Shown here: positions 3,941 through 34,819 of the stretch, piece after piece
Position numbering within the stretch: position 1 is the first letter of the stretch
Layout: each line of letters begins with the position of its first letter
Source: Escherichia phage vB_EcoM_KWBSE43-6
Sequence record: NC_048186.1
DNA length: 64,000 bases
Direction: 5' to 3' (one strand)
Notes under the pieces: model-generated
The model's database searches: none
What the model was told of the DNA's origin: nothing
Seen by the model: the letters and a program-made list of their open reading frames with translations, nothing else
Made by a program: the position numbers and the translations under genes

Positions 3941-3963
3941 AAAAAGCCCCTGAGAAGGGGCTT
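3941..3963 (-). terminator. rho-independent terminator-like hairpin
   Basis: GC stem (agcccct/aggggct) followed by T-run on the minus strand. Confidence 0.5.
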
Positions 3964-3972
3964 TAGTTCATA

Positions 3973-4314
3973 TTATCCAATGAGTGATGCTCGGAAGTCA
4001 AAGGTCGGGCGCGTCGCCCCCGGTTCCAGCACTTCTTCCAGATAACCGACATATTGTTTGACAACTACAGTCGGCTCGGCACGATTGGGCTTGGTTGCAC
4101 TCAGATCCAGAAGGCTGGAAGCCACCTGCTCTACAACAGTGCGCTTGATCTCAAAATGGTAGCGGCTCCCGAAGGCGGCGATCTTGACTTCATTAATTTT
4201 GAAGTCAGACAATTCACTGCTGTTCAACGTACCGATATTCAATTGTGAGCGCAGATGCTCAACAATGTTAGAATAAATGTACTGCGGTGTGATCAGCTGT
4301 TCAATAGAACTCAT
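3973..4314 (-). CDS. hypothetical protein
   Basis: 113-aa ORF, normal composition, in co-oriented early gene array. Confidence 0.5.
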   Translation of the reverse strand: MSSIEQLITPQYIYSNIVEHLRSQLNIGTLNSSELSDFKINEVKIAAFGSRYHFEIKRTVVEQVASSLLDLSATKPNRAEPTVVVKQYVGYLEEVLEPGATRPTFDFRASLIG

Positions 4315-8163: not shown

Positions 8164-9381
8164 TTATTTCTTCATCAATGACATCAGATTAACACTCTTC
8201 CCAACAGGGGCGGTCTCCTGTTTGCGTTCAATACGCTCTTCAAGTTCCCAACGTGTTCCCTTCTGTAGATGCCAGATATGTAGGGGAACGCCCGTCTCAA
8301 AGAACACAGGCATCTTCCACTTCTGGACGCCTGGGACGTGCCCTGCGGGAGCCTTCTCACATAACAGGGTATCTGGTAGCCAAAGTGAACGCGCCTCCCA
8401 GAGTGCCGCGCAGGAGTACTCCGGCCAAATGCGTTCCATGTAGTCGATTTCGTCCCAGGTACGCTCCGCATCCCACCCGATATAACGAGTGTTCTTCAGA
8501 CGGAAGAATTTCTTCAACCAACACGCGCCAGAGGTCTCAAAGTTCAGACGGTTGATGAACGTCAGGTGACCGAATTCTTCAACGCATTCATGGAATGCCT
8601 TTTCCAAATCGGCTTCCAGGATGTCACACTCTTCATCGGTGATAGGACAGCCGTCGATCTTTTTCTTCCCGTGTTTGGTCACCCAATCATCACGGTTAGA
8701 AAGGAACGCCGCGCCGTTGCGGTTCGATTCGCTACCTTCACGGTCACGCAGCATGAAGCCAGGGACATCGATTTCCCACATGTTACCGAACACCATGTTC
8801 AGGGCTTCCAGGAAGTTCCAGGCGCTCAGACGGCCGAAGTATTTCCAGGACATTGCCGTGTCCCACAACTCAGTAAACTGGTCTTCTTTCATGGTGCATT
8901 CCAGCATCCAACGAAAAGAATCCATCTGAGTTTTACCGCCCAGCCAATCCACATAGGACTGAACACATGGGATCATCTTGGACTTGCGGTAGCGGCAATC
9001 AGTATCGAAGCGCATGCGTTCAAAGTTCAGATTATACCAGTCCGAGAAGCGCTGCATTTCTTCTTTGGTCTGCGGAGGAACCGGGAACTCAGAGTAGATT
9101 GTCCACGGGCCGATCGCATTATAGCAGCAACCCCAAAGAAACGCCATCCAGATCTTGCGCTCGATCTTTTCCAGATTGGTGAGGCCTTCTGTGACTTCAA
9201 TAGCATAATCCATCAGACGCATCTGCTGGTTGTGCTCTTCAGTATAGGACAGCGCTTCTACCCACGCCTTGAGCAGATACATCCGGTTCTCAGGCTTGCG
9301 GTAGTCAACCTTCAGATCAATCGGGTACTTCCATTGCTCAGGGGCTTTATACCCCTGCGGCATTTTAGATAAATGTGCCAT
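8164..9381 (-). CDS. hypothetical enzyme; candidate DNA base-modification transferase (aGPT-pyrophosphorylase-like placement)
   Basis: 405-aa ORF, ATG at 9381 with AAGGA SD; adjacent to P-loop kinase gene; functional call is by context only. Confidence 0.35.
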   Translation of the reverse strand: MAHLSKMPQGYKAPEQWKYPIDLKVDYRKPENRMYLLKAWVEALSYTEEHNQQMRLMDYAIEVTEGLTNLEKIERKIWMAFLWGCCYNAIGPWTIYSEFPVPPQTKEEMQRFSDWYNLNFERMRFDTDCRYRKSKMIPCVQSYVDWLGGKTQMDSFRWMLECTMKEDQFTELWDTAMSWKYFGRLSAWNFLEALNMVFGNMWEIDVPGFMLRDREGSESNRNGAAFLSNRDDWVTKHGKKKIDGCPITDEECDILEADLEKAFHECVEEFGHLTFINRLNFETSGACWLKKFFRLKNTRYIGWDAERTWDEIDYMERIWPEYSCAALWEARSLWLPDTLLCEKAPAGHVPGVQKWKMPVFFETGVPLHIWHLQKGTRWELEERIERKQETAPVGKSVNLMSLMKK

Positions 9382-9766: not shown

Positions 9767-9970
9767 TCATTTCCTTAAAAATAATTTATAGACAACAGGT
9801 ATCAAGAACGATAAGAAGCCGAACCAGTAAACCACATTCATGGTTTTCTTTTCTGCTTCTGATAGATCAATGAAACCATAATGATATACTATCATGGTTA
9901 ATAATGAGGCTAAACAAGTGATCGCCCCGACCAATAAAATTGCATCCAACCACTTGTTGTTCATCTTCAT
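9767..9970 (-). CDS. small membrane protein (two predicted TM helices)
   Basis: 67-aa ORF, hydrophobic segments. Confidence 0.5.
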   Translation of the reverse strand: MKMNNKWLDAILLVGAITCLASLLTMIVYHYGFIDLSEAEKKTMNVVYWFGFLSFLIPVVYKLFLRK

Positions 9971-10851
9971 TTCCTCAACATCATAGCCAGCACGTTAGAA
10001 CTTTTGGACAGCTGTTTCTTTTCATCAGCAGTCTTCTTGACAGTCGGGCGGCGGGTAGCCTTTTCCGGTACGCGATGCGCCAGCGGGTCTGAACCACCAA
10101 CTTCGCGTGTCATTGGATGGTCTTCGCAATACTTATAGAATTCTTTGAAGACGAACCCAGCGTCACGGACTTCATTGATGATCATGTGATGAATGGCATT
10201 GCCAATGACCCACAGCGGTGCGTCGAATGGCAATTGGGCAACTTCGCTGCCAACGCCGTTCTTTTTGTAGAGGACGTCCTGACCGCTGTATGAATCTACA
10301 ACGACATCCCAGCCCGCCGCCGCCATTTCAGATTTAGACTTTTCAAATTCTTTCTGATAAGACTCATTCCGAGTCCAGCCCGAATCCCCGGCTTCTTTAC
10401 CAGAACGCCCACGGATACGAGCATCATACTGATAACGATCCGGATACGTGAAGTACAACAGCGCCAGTTGCTCAATAGGATAATTGGCAAACAGCCATTC
10501 TGGACGCCATTTATCAGACAGCATCAACGGTTCACCCTCACAGACGAGCGTATATCCCGCGCTGAGATGTTCTTTGACCAGTTCGCGGGCGATATCACCA
10601 GAACCTGTCGCGGCATGGATAGCGTCCATCGAGGTCCACGAGGCAAGACCGGATTTGTTTGACGCAGTATACTGGCCGACAAACATTAATTTCAGTTCAT
10701 CAAAGGCCAGGCCAAACAGGCGCGTTTTATCGCCGATGGTATAAGTGACCTCGCGCGGCTCGAGGCGAGTACGCAGCCATTCTATGAACTGTACCACACG
10801 AGTGCCCTTGCCCGTGCCGCTTGTGCCTTTGATTACAATCAGTTTTGACAT
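9967..10851 (-). CDS. P-loop kinase; candidate 5-hydroxymethyluracil DNA kinase
   Basis: 294-aa ORF; Walker A GTSGTGKGT near N-terminus; ATG at 10851 confirmed. Confidence 0.55.
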   Translation of the reverse strand: MSKLIVIKGTSGTGKGTRVVQFIEWLRTRLEPREVTYTIGDKTRLFGLAFDELKLMFVGQYTASNKSGLASWTSMDAIHAATGSGDIARELVKEHLSAGYTLVCEGEPLMLSDKWRPEWLFANYPIEQLALLYFTYPDRYQYDARIRGRSGKEAGDSGWTRNESYQKEFEKSKSEMAAAGWDVVVDSYSGQDVLYKKNGVGSEVAQLPFDAPLWVIGNAIHHMIINEVRDAGFVFKEFYKYCEDHPMTREVGGSDPLAHRVPEKATRRPTVKKTADEKKQLSKSSNVLAMMLRK

Positions 10852-12650: not shown

Positions 12651-15647
12651 CTACCCCTTTTTACCCATCATCGCTAATAAATTGACCCGACGTTTGTGAG
12701 ACCAGCCAACGACCGTCAGTATAGACTGGATCGGTTCGATGAATGACTTCTCAAATGCCGTGTTGTAATCCACCCATTTCGCCATATCCAATTCTTCGGG
12801 GAAGAACTCTGGATAGGCGAAATAGTTCTGACCGAATGGATTACCAGCTTTCAGCAGAACAATGTTGACTTTATCGCCAGATTCTATTAACGGTAAATCG
12901 AGTTCTTCATGTTTCTCCACCAGGCGATTGTAGCCGACGCATGCCTTTGCAGCAAAGTGCGCCCCAGAGATAAAGGATCCGTCAGGAGCCACGCACTTCT
13001 CAATATCAGAGACACCTGATGCCTTCGCAATATCATCGACGCTCAGTTTCATGTACTCATCTTTATACGTCTTGATGAGGTCTTGGACTTCGCTTTCCGT
13101 GCCTAAAAGAATGCGCTCATAGCACTTGATGAGACGTTCACGACACCATTCTGGCGTTGTTGATTTACGCGCCTCAAGACCTTTGAATTTGATCTTCGGC
13201 TTCTCATATTTGATGCCTTCACTGTCATAGACAGCCATGCAATACATCTTCTTGGCACGCCATACTGCAGCAGACGCAATGACTTCACGCTCCCAAACCA
13301 TGCGCTGTTCGTAGCCATTCATCGTATTGCAGAGCATCTGCGCCCATTCATTGGTCTTGGGCTGGTAATTCTCCTTGATCCATTGGTCGATATTATCAAC
13401 GAGTTTGTGGTGATCAGTTTCTCCTTCCCACAATTTCTTGACCAGGCGCTCGATACAGATATAGTTCGAGTCCGTGTCCCCCGCGATAACATAATCCAGG
13501 CCGCTGGTCCCGCACAATCCGTTAAGATAATCGTCAGTGTAACGTTTGTTCCACTTATTGATCAACTGCCCTGAAGTTGTAATCGCTTCCGCAATGTTGA
13601 GGTTAAAGTATTCTTTAAACCAGACGTTAGAGATTGCACCATAACCTGCGTTCATCAAGATCTTCAGACCTTGCTGTAACGTGTCTTGGGCAACGCCAAG
13701 GTCTTCCCATTTGTGCATCACTTCGGACAGGTGATCAAGGTCGATGTTTTTGTGCTCTTCATACCAGTCTTGGTCAAAGTAGCGGGATTTCATCGCGGAT
13801 TCAAGGTGGAAGTCACCCTTAGACATTTCCTTACACCAGCCCGCCCATTGCTCATACTTCAGACCCTTGGCCTTCTCACCTTTACGGTCAGCGTAAATGC
13901 CGCGCATGATCTCAGAGAGGAAGGACATTTTCTCATTACTGAAGAATTGAACGTTTGGTGTAAACGACACGTTGTAACGCACGAGGGTTTCAAACCGGAA
14001 TTCACCCAGGGCAACCAGTTCATCTACAACCTGTAGGCGTTCATCAATCGCGCGGAGCAGTTTGTCATGAAGATTCTTCATATGGCGACGTTTATGCATC
14101 GGCGTCGTCATATCATTCATCTTGACAGCAAGCTCTTCACACATGGCTTCAATGATTTCACGACGGGTGTGTTTATCACCGATAATCGTTTCAGGCCCGA
14201 GGTTGTACTGCTGAATGATGTGTGGGTACAGGGAGTTCAAGTCCTCTGAGAAGACCCAATAATAGATCCCTGGCGCCACTTCCATGACATATGCGCCTTC
14301 AAAGTTTGTCGGCCCATCATAGACGCGCTGGACTTTGGGAACAATCCCCTTTTCGTACAGCTTGTAATAACACATGGCCAACCATGGCGCTACCGTGCCC
14401 AAACCGTCTTCAAAGTTAGATTTGGTGCGATACGCCAGGACAAACATCAGCTGAATGAGACGCAGTTTTTGTTCCAGACGCCAGACGAGTTTGACGTCCT
14501 TAATACCATACCGGGTGTGCTTACAATAATCGTTGAAATACAGATCAAACAGTGATTTGCTCTCACTGTAATCCATCTTCTTCTCACCGAGTTCGCAATA
14601 TGCAATCCAGTCCAAAGAATATCTTTCACGTGTGGTGTACGTGTGCTTCTTATAGACCTGCAGGTAATCCAACATAGGACAACCAACGAACTGATAAGTC
14701 GTGATGTCACCTTTCTTATCCCGGATGATGCGCTTTTTTATCTTACCCCAAGGACTCAGGCGATTAGTGTCGGCTTCACCCAATACTTGCATACAGCGTT
14801 CTACCAGATACGGGCTATCGAATTGCTCAATGTTCCAGCCTGTCCAACCGTCAAAGGCCCGCGCTTCCCAGTAATCAACAAATGACCGCAGCAGATCTTG
14901 TTCGGTGGTGAACTCTTGATATTCTACTTCCAGACCACCGATCTCTTCATCATTTGGGTCATATTTGAACTTATGGCGATCCTTAGAACACGGCATCCCC
15001 CAGACCATATATTTGTTATTGGTCAGATCCTGGAGCTGAATGAGCGTAATCGGGAATGCCGCATTCATGTTCTGGGTGATCTTACCATTTGCGTCAATAA
15101 TGGGGAACTGGTCGGTCACGTTGTTGGAGATAAAGGAGCCGGGGAAATGCTCGCGGACGAACGCATGGTTGGCCAAGATACGTTTATGGAACTGACGGAC
15201 GCGCGCCGCGCTCCCTTTGAACGTCTGTAGTTCTATCGTCGGGTGCGGGAATGGACCTTTAGTCATCTGCCCATCGACCCATCCTGCAGAGAACACTTCG
15301 ATATCAAGATTGGCGATATGAATGTTGTTGTAATCTGGCTGAATCGTACCGGGGAAACTGTGGGCGATGAATTGGTAGGCATAGTCAGTCTGACCGTATA
15401 TCGCCGCGCCTTCTACATCCTTGTATTCCTCCATATAGTTGTCGGCGTCACGCATAGACGCAAACTTTTTAGAAATCAGAGGTTCGTTCAACAGGCCGAC
15501 TTTTTCAACATTAGAATAATCAGCCGTGGGTAAATACAGAGTGGGTTCGAATTTCTTTTTGAGCATGCGACGGTTGCCCATGTCATCTGCAATTCGAACT
15601 AACAGGTCGTTGCCTTGCCGGGCGACGTTAGTATAGAAAACAGTCAT
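12651..15647 (-). CDS. DNA polymerase, family B (T4 gp43-like)
   Basis: N-terminus MTVFYTNVARQGNDLLVRIADD aligns with T4 gp43 as recalled; motifs DIEV (exo), DLNSLYPHI, KILMNAGYG, YVIAGDTDS; true start ATG at 15647 with GGAGA SD (ORF track extends to 15830). Confidence 0.9.
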   Translation of the reverse strand: MTVFYTNVARQGNDLLVRIADDMGNRRMLKKKFEPTLYLPTADYSNVEKVGLLNEPLISKKFASMRDADNYMEEYKDVEGAAIYGQTDYAYQFIAHSFPGTIQPDYNNIHIANLDIEVFSAGWVDGQMTKGPFPHPTIELQTFKGSAARVRQFHKRILANHAFVREHFPGSFISNNVTDQFPIIDANGKITQNMNAAFPITLIQLQDLTNNKYMVWGMPCSKDRHKFKYDPNDEEIGGLEVEYQEFTTEQDLLRSFVDYWEARAFDGWTGWNIEQFDSPYLVERCMQVLGEADTNRLSPWGKIKKRIIRDKKGDITTYQFVGCPMLDYLQVYKKHTYTTRERYSLDWIAYCELGEKKMDYSESKSLFDLYFNDYCKHTRYGIKDVKLVWRLEQKLRLIQLMFVLAYRTKSNFEDGLGTVAPWLAMCYYKLYEKGIVPKVQRVYDGPTNFEGAYVMEVAPGIYYWVFSEDLNSLYPHIIQQYNLGPETIIGDKHTRREIIEAMCEELAVKMNDMTTPMHKRRHMKNLHDKLLRAIDERLQVVDELVALGEFRFETLVRYNVSFTPNVQFFSNEKMSFLSEIMRGIYADRKGEKAKGLKYEQWAGWCKEMSKGDFHLESAMKSRYFDQDWYEEHKNIDLDHLSEVMHKWEDLGVAQDTLQQGLKILMNAGYGAISNVWFKEYFNLNIAEAITTSGQLINKWNKRYTDDYLNGLCGTSGLDYVIAGDTDSNYICIERLVKKLWEGETDHHKLVDNIDQWIKENYQPKTNEWAQMLCNTMNGYEQRMVWEREVIASAAVWRAKKMYCMAVYDSEGIKYEKPKIKFKGLEARKSTTPEWCRERLIKCYERILLGTESEVQDLIKTYKDEYMKLSVDDIAKASGVSDIEKCVAPDGSFISGAHFAAKACVGYNRLVEKHEELDLPLIESGDKVNIVLLKAGNPFGQNYFAYPEFFPEELDMAKWVDYNTAFEKSFIEPIQSILTVVGWSHKRRVNLLAMMGKKG

Positions 15648-15725
15648 TGTATTCTCCAGGTTATCCGTGCCGTTAGCACGTTCCCATAATTTAGCCGAGG
15701 AGGGTTCATTGACCAAGGAGTTTAT

Positions 15726-16298
15726 ATGGCAATCCCCTTGGTAAGCATGATTCCTGGCGCTTTGAAACAGCTCTGGAATCTGGGAACTGATTTGATTCAA
15801 TATAAGCGGGAAATTGTAAGCGCCAAGCACGATGTCAAGTTAGAAGCGATCAAATCGTCTTCCGACTGGGAACTATCTAAGATCACAGAAGTTGGTGGTT
15901 CTTGGAAAGATGAATTCTGGACTATCGTTCTTGCTATCCCCGCGATCCTCGTTATGTTAGCTCCAGTTGTGGAACTGCTTTTGTTCCCCGGTGAATATCA
16001 TAAAGGGGATTTCATCAAAGCAGTAGTCGGTGGCATGCAAGCCCTGGATACCGCGCCTGATTGGTATACTGCTTCATTATTGACAGCAATTAGTGCATCA
16101 TTCGGTATCAAAGGCTACAACCACTTTAAAAGCAACAGCCGCAAGGCGCAAGCTGTCGATGCCCTTAAACAATTCGGCGTCAAAGTGGTTAGCAAAGATC
16201 CCACTGTTGTTACTCAGTCGGGTTCTCCCGATCTTGAGTCTGCTCCCCCAGCTGGGTCTACTGCGACCTCTGGTGCGTGGCCTGATCTGAAGAAATAA
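15726..16298 (+). CDS. membrane protein, hypothetical
   Basis: 190-aa ORF with central TM segment; divergent from polymerase gene. Confidence 0.5.
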   Translation: MAIPLVSMIPGALKQLWNLGTDLIQYKREIVSAKHDVKLEAIKSSSDWELSKITEVGGSWKDEFWTIVLAIPAILVMLAPVVELLLFPGEYHKGDFIKAVVGGMQALDTAPDWYTASLLTAISASFGIKGYNHFKSNSRKAQAVDALKQFGVKVVSKDPTVVTQSGSPDLESAPPAGSTATSGAWPDLKK

Positions 16299-18622: not shown

Positions 18623-18654
18623 GTCAGTGATCCTCAGTGTGGATTATGGGGTAT

Positions 18655-19122
18655 TTAGGCTTCCCCCGTCCGCACCGCGATACCAGATTTGTATAACACC
18701 ATCTCAACAATCATCGTATCGTCTAGAGAAACAACAGAGTCATAACCCATATCCATCAAAGCACGAGCATTTTCATGAACAGTACCCGGAGGAATATCCA
18801 ATTCCCTCATCTTGTCTTCCCAAACGGATACATTATTGGAATGTAGGACCAGAGTTCTCCGAGGATTCACCCTAAAGACAAGAACATGTGGTTCACCAAA
18901 CTGGCGATAACGAGTAGCATTTTCCGCATACTGAAGAGCGACTTCTGGTTTTCCTGACAGATAGAACCCCGGCCCCATTGTCCCGGCGTCAGTCTGTCCA
19001 AACTTCTTAAAGTCGAATTCATCAAAAACAACATTGGATCCATGATACAACTCCAAATTTGTCATATCTGGGACGGCATCATGATAAAAGAATTCCAAAA
19101 AGGTTTTCATAAAATACCCCAT
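18655..19122 (-). CDS. hypothetical protein; possible ADP-ribosyltransferase-like fold
   Basis: 155-aa ORF; N-terminal YHGS motif followed by GPGFYLS; weak motif-level resemblance only. Confidence 0.4.
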   Translation of the reverse strand: MGYFMKTFLEFFYHDAVPDMTNLELYHGSNVVFDEFDFKKFGQTDAGTMGPGFYLSGKPEVALQYAENATRYRQFGEPHVLVFRVNPRRTLVLHSNNVSVWEDKMRELDIPPGTVHENARALMDMGYDSVVSLDDTMIVEMVLYKSGIAVRTGEA

Positions 19123-19150
19123 ACGGATTGTATGGGGTATTTAGGAGGGA

Positions 19151-19303
19151 TCAGTTACCACCAGGACAGAACACGTTCCCGCAGAGAGGACCGCCATCAT
19201 TATCTCTGCGACCACAAGTGCTACAGAAACCACCATAATTCGGCTTCTGCTTGAGTGGAGAAACGGTTTTCTGTTGTTGAGGGACGACTTTCTTTATTTT
19301 CAT
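19151..19303 (-). CDS. small Cys-rich (zinc-ribbon-like) protein, 50 aa, not in ORF track
   Basis: Manual translation MKIKKVVPQQQKTVSPLKQKPNYGGFCSTCGRRDNDGGPLCGNVFCPGGN; ATG overlaps stop of upstream PLP-enzyme gene (ATGA coupling). Confidence 0.45.
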   Translation of the reverse strand: MKIKKVVPQQQKTVSPLKQKPNYGGFCSTCGRRDNDGGPLCGNVFCPGGN

Positions 19304-20670
19304 TCAGGTTTAAACTCATTCACAGGAACATTTTCAGGGATAACCAACTCAGGACATGCTGCCTTCATCGGTTCTACATACGGCTTACTACCAACGATCC
19401 AGAACAGAGAGTTCTCGTTCAACAACTCTGGTTTGTGTTCCTGGATCCACGTCATTACCTTGCCTTCATAGCGAGGATGAAGTTCAATGTCACCCCATTG
19501 GTATTCCATCAGATCGTTGTAACGAACCCAATTGGTGGTGTGCAAATCCCAGTGATGAACATTAAAGCGCGGAGAACCATCCGCTCTCTCCAGTTCTTTC
19601 GGGTCGTAACGACCTAACAGGCCAAGCAGTGAAACGCTCTTAGGGGACTGCGGAGCGTCCTTCTTACCATACAGATAATCCGGGTTGTCATGATAATGGC
19701 GAGTGAAGTCCACAATGTGCGGTAAATTGGCATATTCACCAATAATGCGCAGACGACTTTCAATGAAGTCAAGGCGATTAGGACCGATGCCGATCAGGTA
19801 CACATTTTTCAGATTCGGTTTCGGGTGCATTGCCAGGCCCGTCAGGATACTGGTGCAAGAGTTGCATGAACCCGCCGGGATGATCAGATCAGTAATATGA
19901 TCCGGAATGTTGGCGACCTGTTCACCACCCAGCATATGGAATCCAGCGATGCGCTCCGGGGAATGCAATTTATGGTCCAGAGTGATCCCATACTCCAGAT
20001 AATACGCCTTTGGATTCTGTTGTTCAATCAGCTTCTTACAGCGAGGCTGAATGGTGCTGTTATAACCAGAACCGACGAAATTGAAGACGCTACCGAACCA
20101 TGCCGACATTGCTACCATGTCATGGTTCATGCAAGTGGTTGGCTTGGTTGCACCCAAGACTGTAGTCGTATGCCCGCCGAAGTGCCGAGAGACTGCCGTC
20201 GCCATAGGGGACTGCGGACTACCAACGACAGTACCATGGATGATATCGGGGGAGCCTCCGGCTTTCAGATGCTCAACCATGAGCCAGATAGCCTGACGGA
20301 GTTTGCTGCCGTTGATACCCTGTTGCCCGTTTGCATAGTTGGACAGCGGCGCGAAGTAATCTTCACGTTTGAACCAAACCTGTTGGTTGGTTACGGGGTT
20401 TGCAACGAGTTCACACGGGGTGTGTTTGTAGAGATAATCTTCCCAGTGAACCAGGTTGCGGTCTAGAGAAAGAGTTTTGAAGATAGTTTTGTTGTGATGT
20501 TGAGAGATAATACCCCCCATCGACGATTCTTCCTTTAACGCATCGCTGACAAATTCTTCAAGGATATCTTGGTTGATACTACTTTCACAGCTTTGGACTG
20601 TAAATGGAGTTGTATTTGTTTCAACAACAGTTTTGATGTCATTTAAAAGTTTCTGGGTTTTATCGTTCAT
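19300..20670 (-). CDS. PLP-dependent enzyme-like protein; candidate DNA hypermodification enzyme
   Basis: 456-aa ORF; ATG at 20670 with GGAGA SD; Gly-rich segments and Lys-containing motif GINGSKLRQ suggest a fold-type II PLP enzyme, motif-level only. Confidence 0.45.
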   Translation of the reverse strand: MNDKTQKLLNDIKTVVETNTTPFTVQSCESSINQDILEEFVSDALKEESSMGGIISQHHNKTIFKTLSLDRNLVHWEDYLYKHTPCELVANPVTNQQVWFKREDYFAPLSNYANGQQGINGSKLRQAIWLMVEHLKAGGSPDIIHGTVVGSPQSPMATAVSRHFGGHTTTVLGATKPTTCMNHDMVAMSAWFGSVFNFVGSGYNSTIQPRCKKLIEQQNPKAYYLEYGITLDHKLHSPERIAGFHMLGGEQVANIPDHITDLIIPAGSCNSCTSILTGLAMHPKPNLKNVYLIGIGPNRLDFIESRLRIIGEYANLPHIVDFTRHYHDNPDYLYGKKDAPQSPKSVSLLGLLGRYDPKELERADGSPRFNVHHWDLHTTNWVRYNDLMEYQWGDIELHPRYEGKVMTWIQEHKPELLNENSLFWIVGSKPYVEPMKAACPELVIPENVPVNEFKPE

Positions 20671-22307: not shown

Positions 22308-22381
22308 TGGAAGGAGCACCAGGATTCGAACCTGAGATCATGGGATCAAAGCCCATTGCCTTACCGCTTGGCTATGCTCCT
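22308..22381 (-). tRNA. tRNA-Gln (anticodon UUG), CCA encoded
   Basis: Manual cloverleaf: acceptor AGGAGCA/TGCTCCT, D-loop GCCAAGCGGTAAGGC, anticodon loop CUUUGAU, T-loop TTCGAAT. Confidence 0.8.
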
Positions 22382-22541
22382 AAAATTGGGAGAGGTACGC
22401 CAGAGTCGAACTGGAAACAGTATTTGACTGGATTATTTGCATTTAGGCCAGTCATCCCCTGTCTTTTGATCTCCACCCCATCTGCGGCCTGGTGCCGGAT
22501 GCACCCAACATTCAGGTTGCGGGAGAACATACCCCTTAATT

Positions 22542-22625
22542 TGGTGAGGGAGGATGGATTCGAACCACCGAAGCCGAAACACCTGATTTACAGTCAGGCC
22601 CATTTGACCACTCTGGTACTCCCCC
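22542..22625 (-). tRNA. tRNA-Tyr (anticodon GUA), long variable arm, CCA encoded
   Basis: Manual fold: anticodon arm CCTGA-CUGUAAA-TCAGG, long variable arm, T-loop TTCGAAT. Confidence 0.75.
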
Positions 22626-23043
22626 GAATTTGGACGGGCTTCTCACCCGATTGTGCATTTGATCTGCCGTAGCCCAACTCCCCGCGTCGTAACGCCGATT
22701 GGTTAACTGGCACCAGTGCCTTCTGGTGTGATCCCTTGGAACTTTACAGGCTTCGCGCCAAACCATTTCTGGTAGTTGGGGCATCGTTTCCGATGTAGGG
22801 TTCCCCCATTTTAACACAGCTGGCTGCAACGCTTACTGTGTTTGTATCAGAGTGTCCGGTGTAGCATTCCGTGAGGTGCGCACTACTGTAGCCTCTACAC
22901 TCTGAATTTGTATGAAGTGGGAATCACTCTCCTGGGTGTCTGTATCCTGCGGCCTTACATTGGCAGCTATCGCGCGATTCGCACTTCCGAAGGCGCTTTG
23001 AGACACTCCACTTCAATTTGATGATGCCACACCACGTCTGGTT

Positions 23044-23114
23044 TGTTGAATCCAGGATTCGAACCTGGGATACCTGCCTTACAGGCGAGTCGCTTTGCCT
23101 CAGCGTTATTCAAC
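23044..23114 (-). tRNA. tRNA, identity uncertain (anticodon loop CUGUAAG, possibly GUA; one mismatch in anticodon stem)
   Basis: Acceptor GTTGAAT/ATTCAAC, T-arm CCAGG-TTCGAAT-CCTGG; anticodon stem imperfect, could be a pseudo-tRNA. Confidence 0.5.
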
Positions 23115-23239
23115 TGGCACCAATTTGGTGGGCGTTACTTTCGTCGGTTTCAGATTCCGTTCGGCTATTGGACGTTGTTCCAAAGAACTTGTCGGTCGCG
23201 TACTTCGTGCTTACTCGCTTTCGTTTCACACCCATTGTC

Positions 23240-23315
23240 TGGCGATGGTGGCAGGACTTGAACCTGCGACATATGGATTAACAGTCCACCGTTCTACCGA
23301 CTGAACTACACCATC
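23240..23315 (-). tRNA. tRNA-Asn (anticodon GUU), CCA encoded
   Basis: Acceptor GATGGTG/CACCATC, D-arm GTTCAGTCGGTAGAAC, anticodon loop CUGUUAA, T-loop TTCAAGT. Confidence 0.8.
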
Positions 23316-23322
23316 ATCAATT

Positions 23323-23409
23323 TGGCGGAAAGTCTGAGATTCGAACTCAGGGGGCATTACACCCGACGATTTTCAAGACCGTTGCCTTAAACCGCTCGGC
23401 CAACTTTCC
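23323..23409 (-). tRNA. tRNA-Ser (anticodon UGA), long variable arm, CCA encoded
   Basis: Acceptor GGAAAGT/ACTTTCC, D-loop GCCGAGCGGTTTAAGGC, anticodon loop CUUGAAA, variable arm CGGGTGTAATGCCCC. Confidence 0.8.
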
Positions 23410-23415
23410 TTTGTA

Positions 23416-23501
23416 TGGTGGAAGATACAGGATTCGAACCTGTGCAACCTTTCGGTTGTACACCTTAGCAGGGTGCTGCAATACCGCTCTGCCAATCTTC
23501 C
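23416..23501 (-). tRNA. tRNA-Ser (anticodon GCU), long variable arm, CCA encoded
   Basis: Acceptor GGAAGAT/ATCTTCC, anticodon loop CUGCUAA, long variable arm, T-loop TTCGAAT. Confidence 0.75.
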
Positions 23502-23692
23502 TATTTATTCGCTTCTATGGCTCGAAGTTGCTTCTCAGCGTCTTCTTTGGATTCATGTGTTCCCAAAACCTTTGTTTTGGTATGGTCCAACACAACCCAA
23601 TGATCACCACGCTTTTCAACAAACTCAACAATTTCTTTGTTGTCAGTCGCAAGACCATCCCATTCAGTTAAGAACTCACCGAACGTTTTCAT
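23501..23692 (-). CDS. small hypothetical protein embedded in tRNA cluster
   Basis: ORF track 23501..23719 (non-ATG start); likely start MMKTFGEF at 23692; protein-like composition. Confidence 0.5.
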   Translation of the reverse strand: MKTFGEFLTEWDGLATDNKEIVEFVEKRGDHWVVLDHTKTKVLGTHESKEDAEKQLRAIEANK

Positions 23693-23919
23693 CATACTCA
23701 CCAATCGTTTATTGAACAACTGGTTTATTTAGGTGCTCCCGAGGCGGTATTTTAATCCCGCGATCCCATCTCGCCTGCCGTAGACCAGAGCTTGTTGGCA
23801 GTCCAACAAATTTGGCGGGGTCTGAGGATTTTCACCTCACCTGCTGGATTGGCCTCCAGCCGTTCTCTCTGGGGACTCGCCGTCCGGACAGCTATCCCTT
23901 AAACTATCGCCCCTTAATA

Positions 23920-23995
23920 TGGTGATCCTGATTGGTTTTGAACCAATGACCAATCGATTATGAGTCGACTGCTCTAACCACTGAGCTACAGGACC
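23920..23995 (-). tRNA. tRNA-Met/Ile-type (anticodon CAU), CCA encoded
   Basis: Acceptor GGTCCTG/CAGGATC, D-arm GCTCAGTGGTTAGAGC, anticodon loop CUCAUAA, T-loop TTCAAAA. Confidence 0.75.
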
Positions 23996-31468: not shown

Positions 31469-31509
31469 ACTAAATACCCCTAGACGATTACATGTGCTAG
31501 GGGTATTTT
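31469..31509 (+). promoter_or_regulatory. CTAAATA motif embedded in a 12-bp leader hairpin immediately upstream of tailspike start
   Basis: aaatacccctag...ctaggggtattt stem ending 4 nt before ATG 31513; no SD between hairpin and ATG. Confidence 0.4.
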
Positions 31510-34780: not shown

Positions 34781-34819
34781 ACTAAATACCCCATATTGGT
34801 AACGCCTTATGGGGTATTT
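34781..34819 (+). promoter_or_regulatory. CTAAATA motif embedded in an 11-bp leader hairpin immediately upstream of tailspike start
   Basis: aaataccccat...atggggtattt stem ending 4 nt before ATG 34823; no SD; near-identical architecture to 31469-31509. Confidence 0.4.

Follow-up and report, generated by a model that had tools for sequence, protein, structure and literature searches.

Com of phage Mu is a small Cys4 zinc-finger protein that activates translation of the DNA-modification gene mom, and it is the nearest precedent for the idea that a small cysteine-rich protein could be the partner of a DNA-modification enzyme. Two other small phage proteins, Ogr of P2 and Delta of P4, are late-gene activators of about 72 aa, with a zinc finger of the form Cys-x2-Cys-x22-Cys-x4-Cys. 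The modification enzyme of most relevance here is gp226 of Salmonella phage ViI, which acts in vitro as a PLP-dependent O-serinyl-thymidine (O-SerT) decarboxylase (PMC8989533). Lee et al. reported that gp226 purified to homogeneity decarboxylates O-serinyl-thymidine in DNA on its own, giving 5-NeOmdU (PMC8989533).

A gene for an enzyme of this type lies in the window, that is, the whole 64,000 nt stretch of DNA that was analyzed (sequence record NC_048186.1). The region described below shares 97% DNA identity with Klebsiella phages phi1_146021, Bullseye and Menlow, the last of which is classified in the genus Taipeivirus, family Ackermannviridae; judged by this similarity, the window is a Klebsiella Taipeivirus. 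It carries homologues of all three ViI thymidine-hypermodification proteins (gp243, gp247 and gp226):

8167-9381: homologue of the ViI serine:DNA transferase gp247 (85% identity)
9970-10851: homologue of the ViI kinase gp243 (71% identity)
19300..20670, minus strand: gene for a ViI gp226-type PLP decarboxylase, 456 aa (gp226 homology; PALP; PHROG 3650)

The protein encoded by the last of these is 88% identical over 396 aa to ViI gp226 (YP_004327553; homology across 19303-20490) and gives a weak match to the Pfam PALP model (E 2e-5, below the curated cut-off). Homology begins at about residue 60, and the true start of the PLP gene may lie downstream of 20670.

A small gene overlapping the decarboxylase gene

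Two further features are found at the end of the decarboxylase gene:

19151..19303, minus strand: small CDS of 50 codons plus TGA, translation MKIKKVVPQQQKTVSPLKQKPNYGGFCSTCGRRDNDGGPLCGNVFCPGGN
19300..19303, minus strand: ATGA start/stop overlap with the upstream gene, a presumed termination-reinitiation site

The original prediction, made from the sequence alone and giving no strand, had proposed an ORF at 19151-19303 with a start codon overlapping the stop of the PLP gene. Such an ORF does exist, on the minus strand, with 50 aa and a stop codon. A direct read of the plus strand gives TCAT at 19300-19303, which is ATGA on the minus strand, and the ATG of the small ORF (19303-19301) shares bases with the TGA (19302-19300) of the 456-aa ORF, the two genes being physically coupled by the overlap. 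The default threshold for ORF listing in the present analysis was 60 aa or more, and a similar length cut-off would account for the absence of the small ORF from the earlier ORF track.

The small ORF offers no possible Shine-Dalgarno sequence better than a weak GAG at -12, and a permissive consensus scan found no promoter-like site directly upstream. A frameshift fusion with the PLP enzyme was considered and is unlikely, there being a TGA in the small ORF's own frame immediately 5' of its ATG; a TTTAAAC sequence just 5' of the ORF was rejected as a slippery site, as its phase is wrong. Among homologues in other phages, Shine-Dalgarno sites are found about 7-8 nt before the ATG, namely GAGG in GAP32 and CBB, AAGAGGA in XF4 and AAGGA in contig L023, and Ci1 and other homologues likewise have their own site at about this distance. 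The homologues with an intergenic region on the 5' side are the ones with good Shine-Dalgarno sequences. Start/stop overlaps with unrelated neighbours are usual for homologues of the gene in other phages, and the ATGA overlap therefore reflects gene packing rather than a partnership between the two products.

Conservation and coding status

Short ORFs are abundant in the window (102 of at least 30 aa across 9 kb), so a 50-aa ORF is by itself not beyond chance expectation. This one is lifted above chance because it is conserved in unrelated phage groups and is under strong purifying selection. Over the last 24 codons of 12 homologues, pooled pS was 0.81 versus a pN of 0.14 (Nei-Gojobori), and a comparison of the window with the core of a 371-kb jumbo-phage contig (L021) gave 12 synonymous and 0 nonsynonymous differences. 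In this 24-codon core the synonymous sites are saturated and the peptide hardly changes. The ORF is a genuine phage gene under strong constraint, and its most conserved part is:

19154..19225, minus strand: conserved 24-codon core, C27-N50, with the stop codon directly after it

The core consensus is C-[SP]-x-C-G-R-x-D-[ND]-D-G-G-P-[LM]-C-x-x-x-F-C-P-G-G-N. Across 13 aligned sequences the invariant columns are C27, C30, R32, D36, G37, G38, P39, C41, F45, C46, G48, G49 and N50, bearing out the four-cysteine pattern (C27, C30, C41 and C46) that had been proposed from the window alone. The four cysteines and the C-terminal GGN are also kept in four further intact homologues (L019-L021 and L023), and a stop codon directly follows GGN in all intact homologues seen. 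The N-terminal part varies in sequence and in length, with tails of about 10 to about 30 residues. One metagenomic copy (P0012) has a truncated and altered C-terminus.

The gene is not new. Identical ORFs (100%) are present in Klebsiella phages cp21 and KP6F1, and the protein shares 98% identity with annotated hypothetical proteins of Menlow (CPT_Menlow_025/AUG87731.1) and phi1_146021 (XCO38811.1, CDS0191); a further annotated entry is GAP32_374A/YP_006987481.1. It is catalogued as PHROG 14303, a family without an assigned function, whose HMM it matches along the full length (E 1.9e-27, 96.5 bits, residues 1-50 versus profile positions 1-50 of 50). A literature search with the PHROG 14303 identifier and with a locus tag from a Yersinia jumbo phage returned nothing relevant.

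Predicted properties of the protein

The mini-protein has a mass of about 5 kDa. Residues 1-26 form a variable N-terminal tail rich in Lys, and the remainder is the invariant Cys4 module at the C-terminus. The spacing of the cysteines is CxxC-x10-Cx4C. The first knuckle (C-S-T-C-G-R) fits the CxxCG consensus, and the second pair, C41-x4-C46, is Cx4C in all homologues. Searches of Pfam at E values up to 10 gave no family for the window protein; the best match among members of the family was DUF3797 (17.6 bits versus a cut-off of 25.1), covering the first knuckle only. NCBIfam returned nothing at threshold, and a PDB sequence profile search gave no match better than E 0.08. The top matches in that search were the ribosomal proteins L34e and L32 (E 0.08 or worse, across the CxxCG knuckle only), which are at chance level. 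AlphaFold2 returned a mean pLDDT of 53.4 with the full-length alignment and 50.5 with the core alignment, and because both values are near 50 no fold is claimed.

A profile search of 1.8 billion representative proteins retrieved six small clusters, all of 34-52 aa, and found no fusions of the module to larger proteins. No signal peptide was detected. Taken with the four invariant cysteines, the classical first knuckle and the turns rich in Gly, Asn, Asp and Pro, this is most simply interpreted as a cytoplasmic Zn(Cys)4 mini-domain.

The insertion site and its flanking sequences

On the 3' side of the small ORF are the following features:

19134..19144, minus strand: CTAAATACCCC, a conserved Ackermannviridae regulatory motif, directly after the small ORF and ahead of the next gene
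19112..19142, minus strand: 13-bp hairpin between the small ORF and the next gene, ending 1 nt before the AUG at 19110
18655..19122, minus strand: downstream gene, Vi01_183 homologue (60% identity; ART-PolyVal E 5e-6, DUF3990 E 4e-6)

The surrounding block (tail needle knob, Vi01_181, PLP gene, Vi01_183, Vi01_184) is collinear between the window and ViI, CBA120 and Dickeya phage RC-2014. In these three phages the stop codon of the PLP gene is followed by TCC(C/A)TCCTAAATACCCC and then by the next gene, and alignment of the junctions reveals a single clean gap of 153 nt, an insertion or a deletion, flanked by TGA at either end. CTAAATACCCC marks the right-hand edge of the insertion; it aligns across ViI, CBA120, RC-2014 and May and occurs four times in the window, compared to 0.6 copies expected by chance. 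In an Ackermannviridae phage genome this sequence was reported as one of a pair of regulatory motifs (PMC7283392). Judging from these alignments, the small gene in Taipeivirus is a local 153-nt cassette insertion beside the PLP gene. Two ViI ORFs of similar size, Vi01_178 and Vi01_186c, were considered as possible counterparts and rejected, being unrelated hydrophobic peptides.

The hairpin has a folding energy of -19.2 kcal/mol (z -2.9), and CTAAATACCCC is embedded in it. It is annotated as a terminator in Menlow; a clean U-tract after it is absent, and our consensus terminator scan did not call it. Phages without the small ORF keep the hairpin, which therefore goes with the downstream gene and not with the small ORF. 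CBA120, ViI and RC-2014 also have this downstream gene while lacking the small ORF, and it is not of the small gene's family; its two matches to ADP-ribosyltransferase-like Pfam models both fall below their cut-offs.

Distribution and genomic contexts

Searches with tBLASTn retrieved 76 records at a permissive E value of 10, of which about 64 are credible homologues. Intact copies fall into four groups: Klebsiella phages (26 records, 94-100% identity), Dickeya Limestonevirus (19 records, 50%), jumbo phages (60-68%) of Cronobacter, Pectobacterium, Erwinia, Serratia and Yersinia, and the T4-like phage Ci1 of Citrobacter. The match in Vibrio phages is partial. The genomic contexts comprise Taipeivirus, Limestonevirus, Mimasvirus-like jumbo phages, Straboviridae (Ci1 and L010), a dCMP-deaminase/tRNA neighborhood (L011-13) and Vibrio phages. 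Metagenomic and IMG/VR searches contribute a few further contexts, the IMG/VR scan adding L021 and L023 only.

The core in Taipeivirus matches that of the jumbo-phage contig at 100% identity and that of Limestonevirus at only 75%, which points to separate acquisitions. The presence of the gene varies within one genus. In T4-like phages it sits within hyperplastic arrays of small genes, and in others next to homing-endonuclease and tRNA genes; it lies 52 nt after a tRNA-like gene in GAP32, 14 nt before a tRNA-Arg gene in L011, 1.4 kb from a tRNA-Met gene in Limestonevirus and 3 kb from a tRNA cluster in the window. The Limestonevirus homologue is placed after the homologue of Vi01_177 and before a tRNA gene. 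Comparison of the downstream neighbours found no conserved partner gene, these neighbours being mutually non-homologous.

Proposed role of the small protein

The explanation we consider probable is that the small ORF is an autonomous, horizontally mobile accessory gene for what is likely a zinc-binding Cys4 mini-protein serving as a host-takeover or counter-defence factor. An autonomous, host-directed effector is favored because the gene is distributed in the manner of a mobile accessory gene, and the host-directed role is suggested by analogy with other small accessory phage proteins and by the gene context. The functional unit would be the invariant 24-residue module CxxCGRxDNDGGPLCxxxFCPGGN at the free C-terminus. 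Its four cysteines most likely chelate one Zn2+, and the module would form a rigid knob held by the metal and by Gly/Asn/Asp/Pro turns, preceded by the variable, basic N-terminal tail.

The gene would have come as a precise 153-nt cassette placed between the PLP stop codon and the CTAAATACCCC motif of the next gene, a position that would therefore leave it without its own promoter and without a good ribosome-binding site. It is probably transcribed together with the decarboxylase gene and translated by ribosomes that would terminate at the UGA and resume at the AUG overlapping it. Its product would act by itself and not as a subunit of the decarboxylase, most likely by binding a conserved macromolecule of gammaproteobacterial hosts, and the gene would be a mobile accessory of the hyperplastic small-gene and tRNA regions of several phage families.

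A more specific proposal, unlikely as it stands, builds on the gene context and the conservation pattern and takes the Cys4/GGN module near tRNA genes to be a new class of phage mini-effector. It might dock onto the ribosome or tRNA, or its free C-terminal Gly-Gly-Asn might serve as a decoy for a host defence enzyme, candidates for the latter being an anticodon nuclease or an E1/ubiquitin-like conjugation system.

Also to be weighed is a role in translation or tRNA biology, in which a basic-tailed Cys4 protein would bind the ribosome or tRNA, imitating a zinc-type ribosomal protein or giving protection against anticodon nucleases. The combination of a Lys-rich tail with a Cys4 knuckle would suit such a role, as would the proximity of tRNA genes in independent lineages (GAP32, L011, Limestonevirus and the window) and the identity of the top PDB matches, L34e and L32, which are far from significant. 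Regions with tRNA genes are, however, general hotspots for accessory genes, and Ci1, L010, D69 and L023 have no tRNA gene within flanks of 2.5-6 kb on each side. The PDB matches are confined to the CxxCG knuckle at E 0.08 or worse, and hhalign gave a probability of 0.5% against bL36. We regard this role as quite unlikely.

Relationship to the PLP decarboxylase

The small protein had originally been proposed as a possible partner or regulatory subunit of the modification enzyme, and translational coupling could in that case fix the ratio of the two products. In this phage the ATGA overlap without a good Shine-Dalgarno sequence favors co-transcription and probably co-translation, and Taipeivirus relatives share the arrangement, including the more divergent May. 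Conservation of the ORF and its cysteine pattern, which had been put forward as a check, was indeed found across relatives; its adjacency to the PLP gene, on the other hand, is confined to Taipeivirus among the contexts compared.

The gene for the enzyme was found in 345 phage records, of which 160 are from Salmonella, 61 from Vibrio, 44 from Klebsiella, 27 from Escherichia, 19 from Dickeya and the rest from others, and the small ORF lies beside it in about 26, all from Klebsiella (26 of the 44 Klebsiella enzyme records). Among close relatives, the junction has no small ORF in ViI, CBA120 and RC-2014, and in the Taipeivirus phage Magnus the small ORF is missing together with the next gene. Absence from close relatives was the refuting outcome named with the original prediction, and on it the partner idea fails. 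In Limestonevirus the two genes are unlinked, about 3.8 kb apart with several genes and a tRNA gene between them.

Conversely, no PLP homologue was found within 3-6 kb of the small gene in GAP32-like jumbo phages, Ci1, L010, L011-L013, L021, L023 or Vibrio phage D69, a statement on absence that draws on these flanks and on organism counts. In those counts, ten genera make up 337 of the 345 PLP records, and the other eight records fall under five further names. Four of these names are already assigned, which leaves room for no more than one of Cronobacter, Pectobacterium and Citrobacter among the PLP matches.

A subunit should co-occur with and adjoin its enzyme across the phages that encode it, and this is not what was observed. 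Nor does the enzyme appear to need a partner, as purified ViI gp226 works alone (PMC8989533) and shares 88% identity with the enzyme of the window. Elsewhere, moreover, the small gene as a rule has start/stop overlaps with neighbours that are unrelated. The partner model is largely refuted by the distribution, and we consider it very unlikely that the mini-protein is a dedicated subunit of the PLP enzyme.

Other explanations

By analogy with Com, the small protein could be a zinc-finger RNA binder that opens the hairpin and thereby activates translation of the ADP-ribosyltransferase-like gene at 18655-19110. The small ORF is directly 5' of the hairpin, and this structure (13 bp, -19.2 kcal/mol) stops 1 nt short of the AUG and sequesters the sole G-rich stretch (GGGG) just 5' of it; Mu Com is itself a small Cys4 protein linked to a DNA-modification operon. 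Against this, ViI, CBA120 and RC-2014 have the same hairpin and downstream gene without the small ORF, homologues elsewhere precede unrelated genes that have no such hairpin, and no match to any Com-type family was found in Pfam at E values up to 10. The proposal is highly improbable.

There is similarly little chance that the C-terminal Gly-Gly-Asn is the substrate of, or a decoy for, an enzyme that recognizes C-termini, such as a protease or an E1-like adenylating enzyme (of the microcin C or ubiquitin-like conjugation type), or that the protein is a RiPP precursor. GGN followed by a stop is seen in all intact homologues despite tails of about 10 to about 30 residues, and the core is frozen to an unusual degree. 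A modifying enzyme is not consistently adjacent, however. A RiPP precursor would be expected to have a conserved modifying-enzyme neighbour and a variable core preceded by a conserved leader, whereas here the neighbours differ in each lineage, the tail is variable and the core fixed, and a signal peptide is absent.

Finally, the idea of a random reading frame within the 3' part of the PLP transcript, as the abundance of short ORFs (102 of at least 30 aa per 9 kb) and the absence of a strong Shine-Dalgarno site in the window might suggest, is refuted by the saturation of synonymous sites alongside a nearly fixed amino acid sequence, by conservation of the complete ORF in at least eight genomic contexts and by the good Shine-Dalgarno sites of other phages, which leaves this possibility negligible.

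Significance

With an autonomous, mobile accessory gene as the preferred reading, the result is mainly a correction: a real gene was probably hidden by a length cut-off, and it is not to be read as part of the thymidine-hypermodification machinery, the decarboxylase working alone. The 24-residue module is identical in amino acid sequence between Ackermannviridae and jumbo phages at saturated synonymous sites, a constraint that is unusually strong for a phage accessory gene. PHROG 14303 is a reasonable and cheap candidate for a functional screen of metal content, host interactors and counter-defence activity.

Comparison with known small cysteine-rich proteins

Classical zinc ribbons and knuckles (bL32/eL34, TFIIS-type) have two CPxCG-type knuckles, and the ribbon fold is a three-stranded beta-sheet with two hairpins and tetrahedral Cys4 geometry, against which AlphaFold2 models with pLDDT near 50 are too uncertain to be compared. 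The window protein resembles them in its small size, its CxxCG first knuckle and its four invariant cysteines within about 20 residues, and the description of the ORF product as zinc-ribbon-like is half borne out, by the classical first knuckle, CSTCG. It does not extend to the second pair, which is Cx4C and not a second CxxC knuckle, and the two pairs are separated by 10 residues; no Pfam zinc-ribbon model was matched at threshold, and no curated ribbon or finger model in Pfam or NCBIfam was above threshold.

The ribosomal protein bL36 (C-x2-C-x12-C-x4-H) is of similar size and has a comparable Cx2C...Cx4[C/H] pattern, and both proteins have basic N-termini (MKVR.. in bL36, MKIK.. in the window protein). 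This likeness was rejected: the hhalign comparison aligned five columns at the 0.5% probability given above, and bL36 was not found among the matches of the PDB profile search.

Ogr and Delta, too, are small proteins of phages and have a CxxC pair with a Cx4C pair after it. The window protein differs in having a spacer of 10 rather than 22 residues and a length of about 50 rather than about 72 aa; Pfam searches at E values up to 10 gave no match to the Ogr_Delta family, placing it outside that family, and the comparison provided no evidence supporting a role in transcription.

Mu Com and the window protein are both small Cys4 proteins whose genes overlap a DNA-modification gene. The com gene lies upstream of mom and its product acts on mom mRNA, whereas the small ORF of the window lies downstream of the modification gene. 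Unlike com, it is absent from most phages that carry the modification gene, and it has no detectable sequence similarity to Com. The closest described relatives are the members of PHROG 14303; membership provides a place in the catalogue and not a function, and within it the window protein is of the same family in every respect, with nothing that differs.

A hairpin ahead of the downstream gene

The gene downstream of the small ORF is preceded by a predicted hairpin with a 13-bp stem, and this structure contains one copy of the Ackermannviridae motif CTAAATACCCC:

19112-19142 (-), hairpin, 13-bp stem, -19.2 kcal/mol, z -2.9
19134-19144 (-), CTAAATACCCC, contained in the hairpin

The hairpin ends 1 nt ahead of the AUG of the downstream gene (19110), and the sole G-rich stretch shortly 5' of that AUG, a GGGG, is sequestered within it. 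The structure is kept in ViI, CBA120, RC-2014 and May, where a stem A-U pair is changed to G-U. The Menlow annotation marks it as a terminator, but the stem lacks a trailing U-tract. This hairpin may regulate how the downstream gene is translated. The motif occurs four times in the window, compared with 0.6 expected by chance, and the three further exact copies below each lie shortly 5' of a gene start, a pattern consistent with a promoter or regulatory motif that is specific to the phage:

18648-18658 (-), CTAAATACCCC, exact copy
31470-31480 (+), CTAAATACCCC, exact copy
34782-34792 (+), CTAAATACCCC, exact copy

The product of the downstream gene (18655-19122, -) gives sub-threshold, ADP-ribosyltransferase-like Pfam matches to ART-PolyVal and DUF3990, and in one record the gene is annotated as 'DarB-like antirestriction'. 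It is mosaic among near-identical phages, sharing about 99% identity with phi1_146021 but only about 61% with Menlow, while the genes that flank it are 97–98% identical in the same phages. Magnus lacks both this gene and the small ORF.

Genomic neighborhood of the small gene

In several independent lineages, phage tRNA genes adjoin or neighbor the gene for the 50-aa four-Cys protein, and the loci concerned are:

L011 (dCMP-deaminase/tRNA contig), 3953-4030
L012 (dCMP-deaminase/tRNA contig), 470-546
L005, 4574-4650
Window, 22308-23995 (-)

Just 14 nt separate the small gene from a tRNA-Arg gene in L011. In Cronobacter phage GAP32 (L003), the small-ORF homologue is preceded at a distance of 52 nt by a tRNA-like gene, and a hairpin with a U-tract comes after that gene. 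The 120-nt tRNA-like element (L003, 2829-2948) was called as a tRNA by Rfam (33.4 bits; gathering score, 29), was missed by ARAGORN and is unannotated in the record; it looks like a tRNA carrying an insertion of about 50 nt. No tRNA gene was found near the small gene in four other lineages (2.5–6 kb of flank on each side). The proximity could reflect insertion at a hotspot or a functional link.

In a metagenomic homologue of 44 aa (P0012), the N-terminal half and the first knuckle are normal, but the sequence departs after DNDGG (...GGKGSGGQWIKV) and the last two Cys are absent. This homologue appears to be a frameshifted, decaying copy, which is consistent with the small gene being dispensable.

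Start sites of neighboring genes

An HNH endonuclease gene interrupts the DNA polymerase gene of Dickeya phage RC-2014 (L009, 9339-12185); the polymerase gene of the window is a single unbroken ORF (12651-15830, -). Its listed GTG start (15830) overlaps a divergent ORF (15726-16298, +); the actual start probably lies further downstream, since the Menlow annotation is 999 aa. The PLP-enzyme start annotation also varies among Taipeiviruses, with a Menlow version of 411 aa. Residues specified by the first ~59 codons of this 456-aa ORF (20491-20670, -) are unmatched in ViI gp226 (424 aa) and CBA120 orf228 (397 aa). Translation may actually begin at an internal codon, or these residues may form an N-terminal extension that varies.
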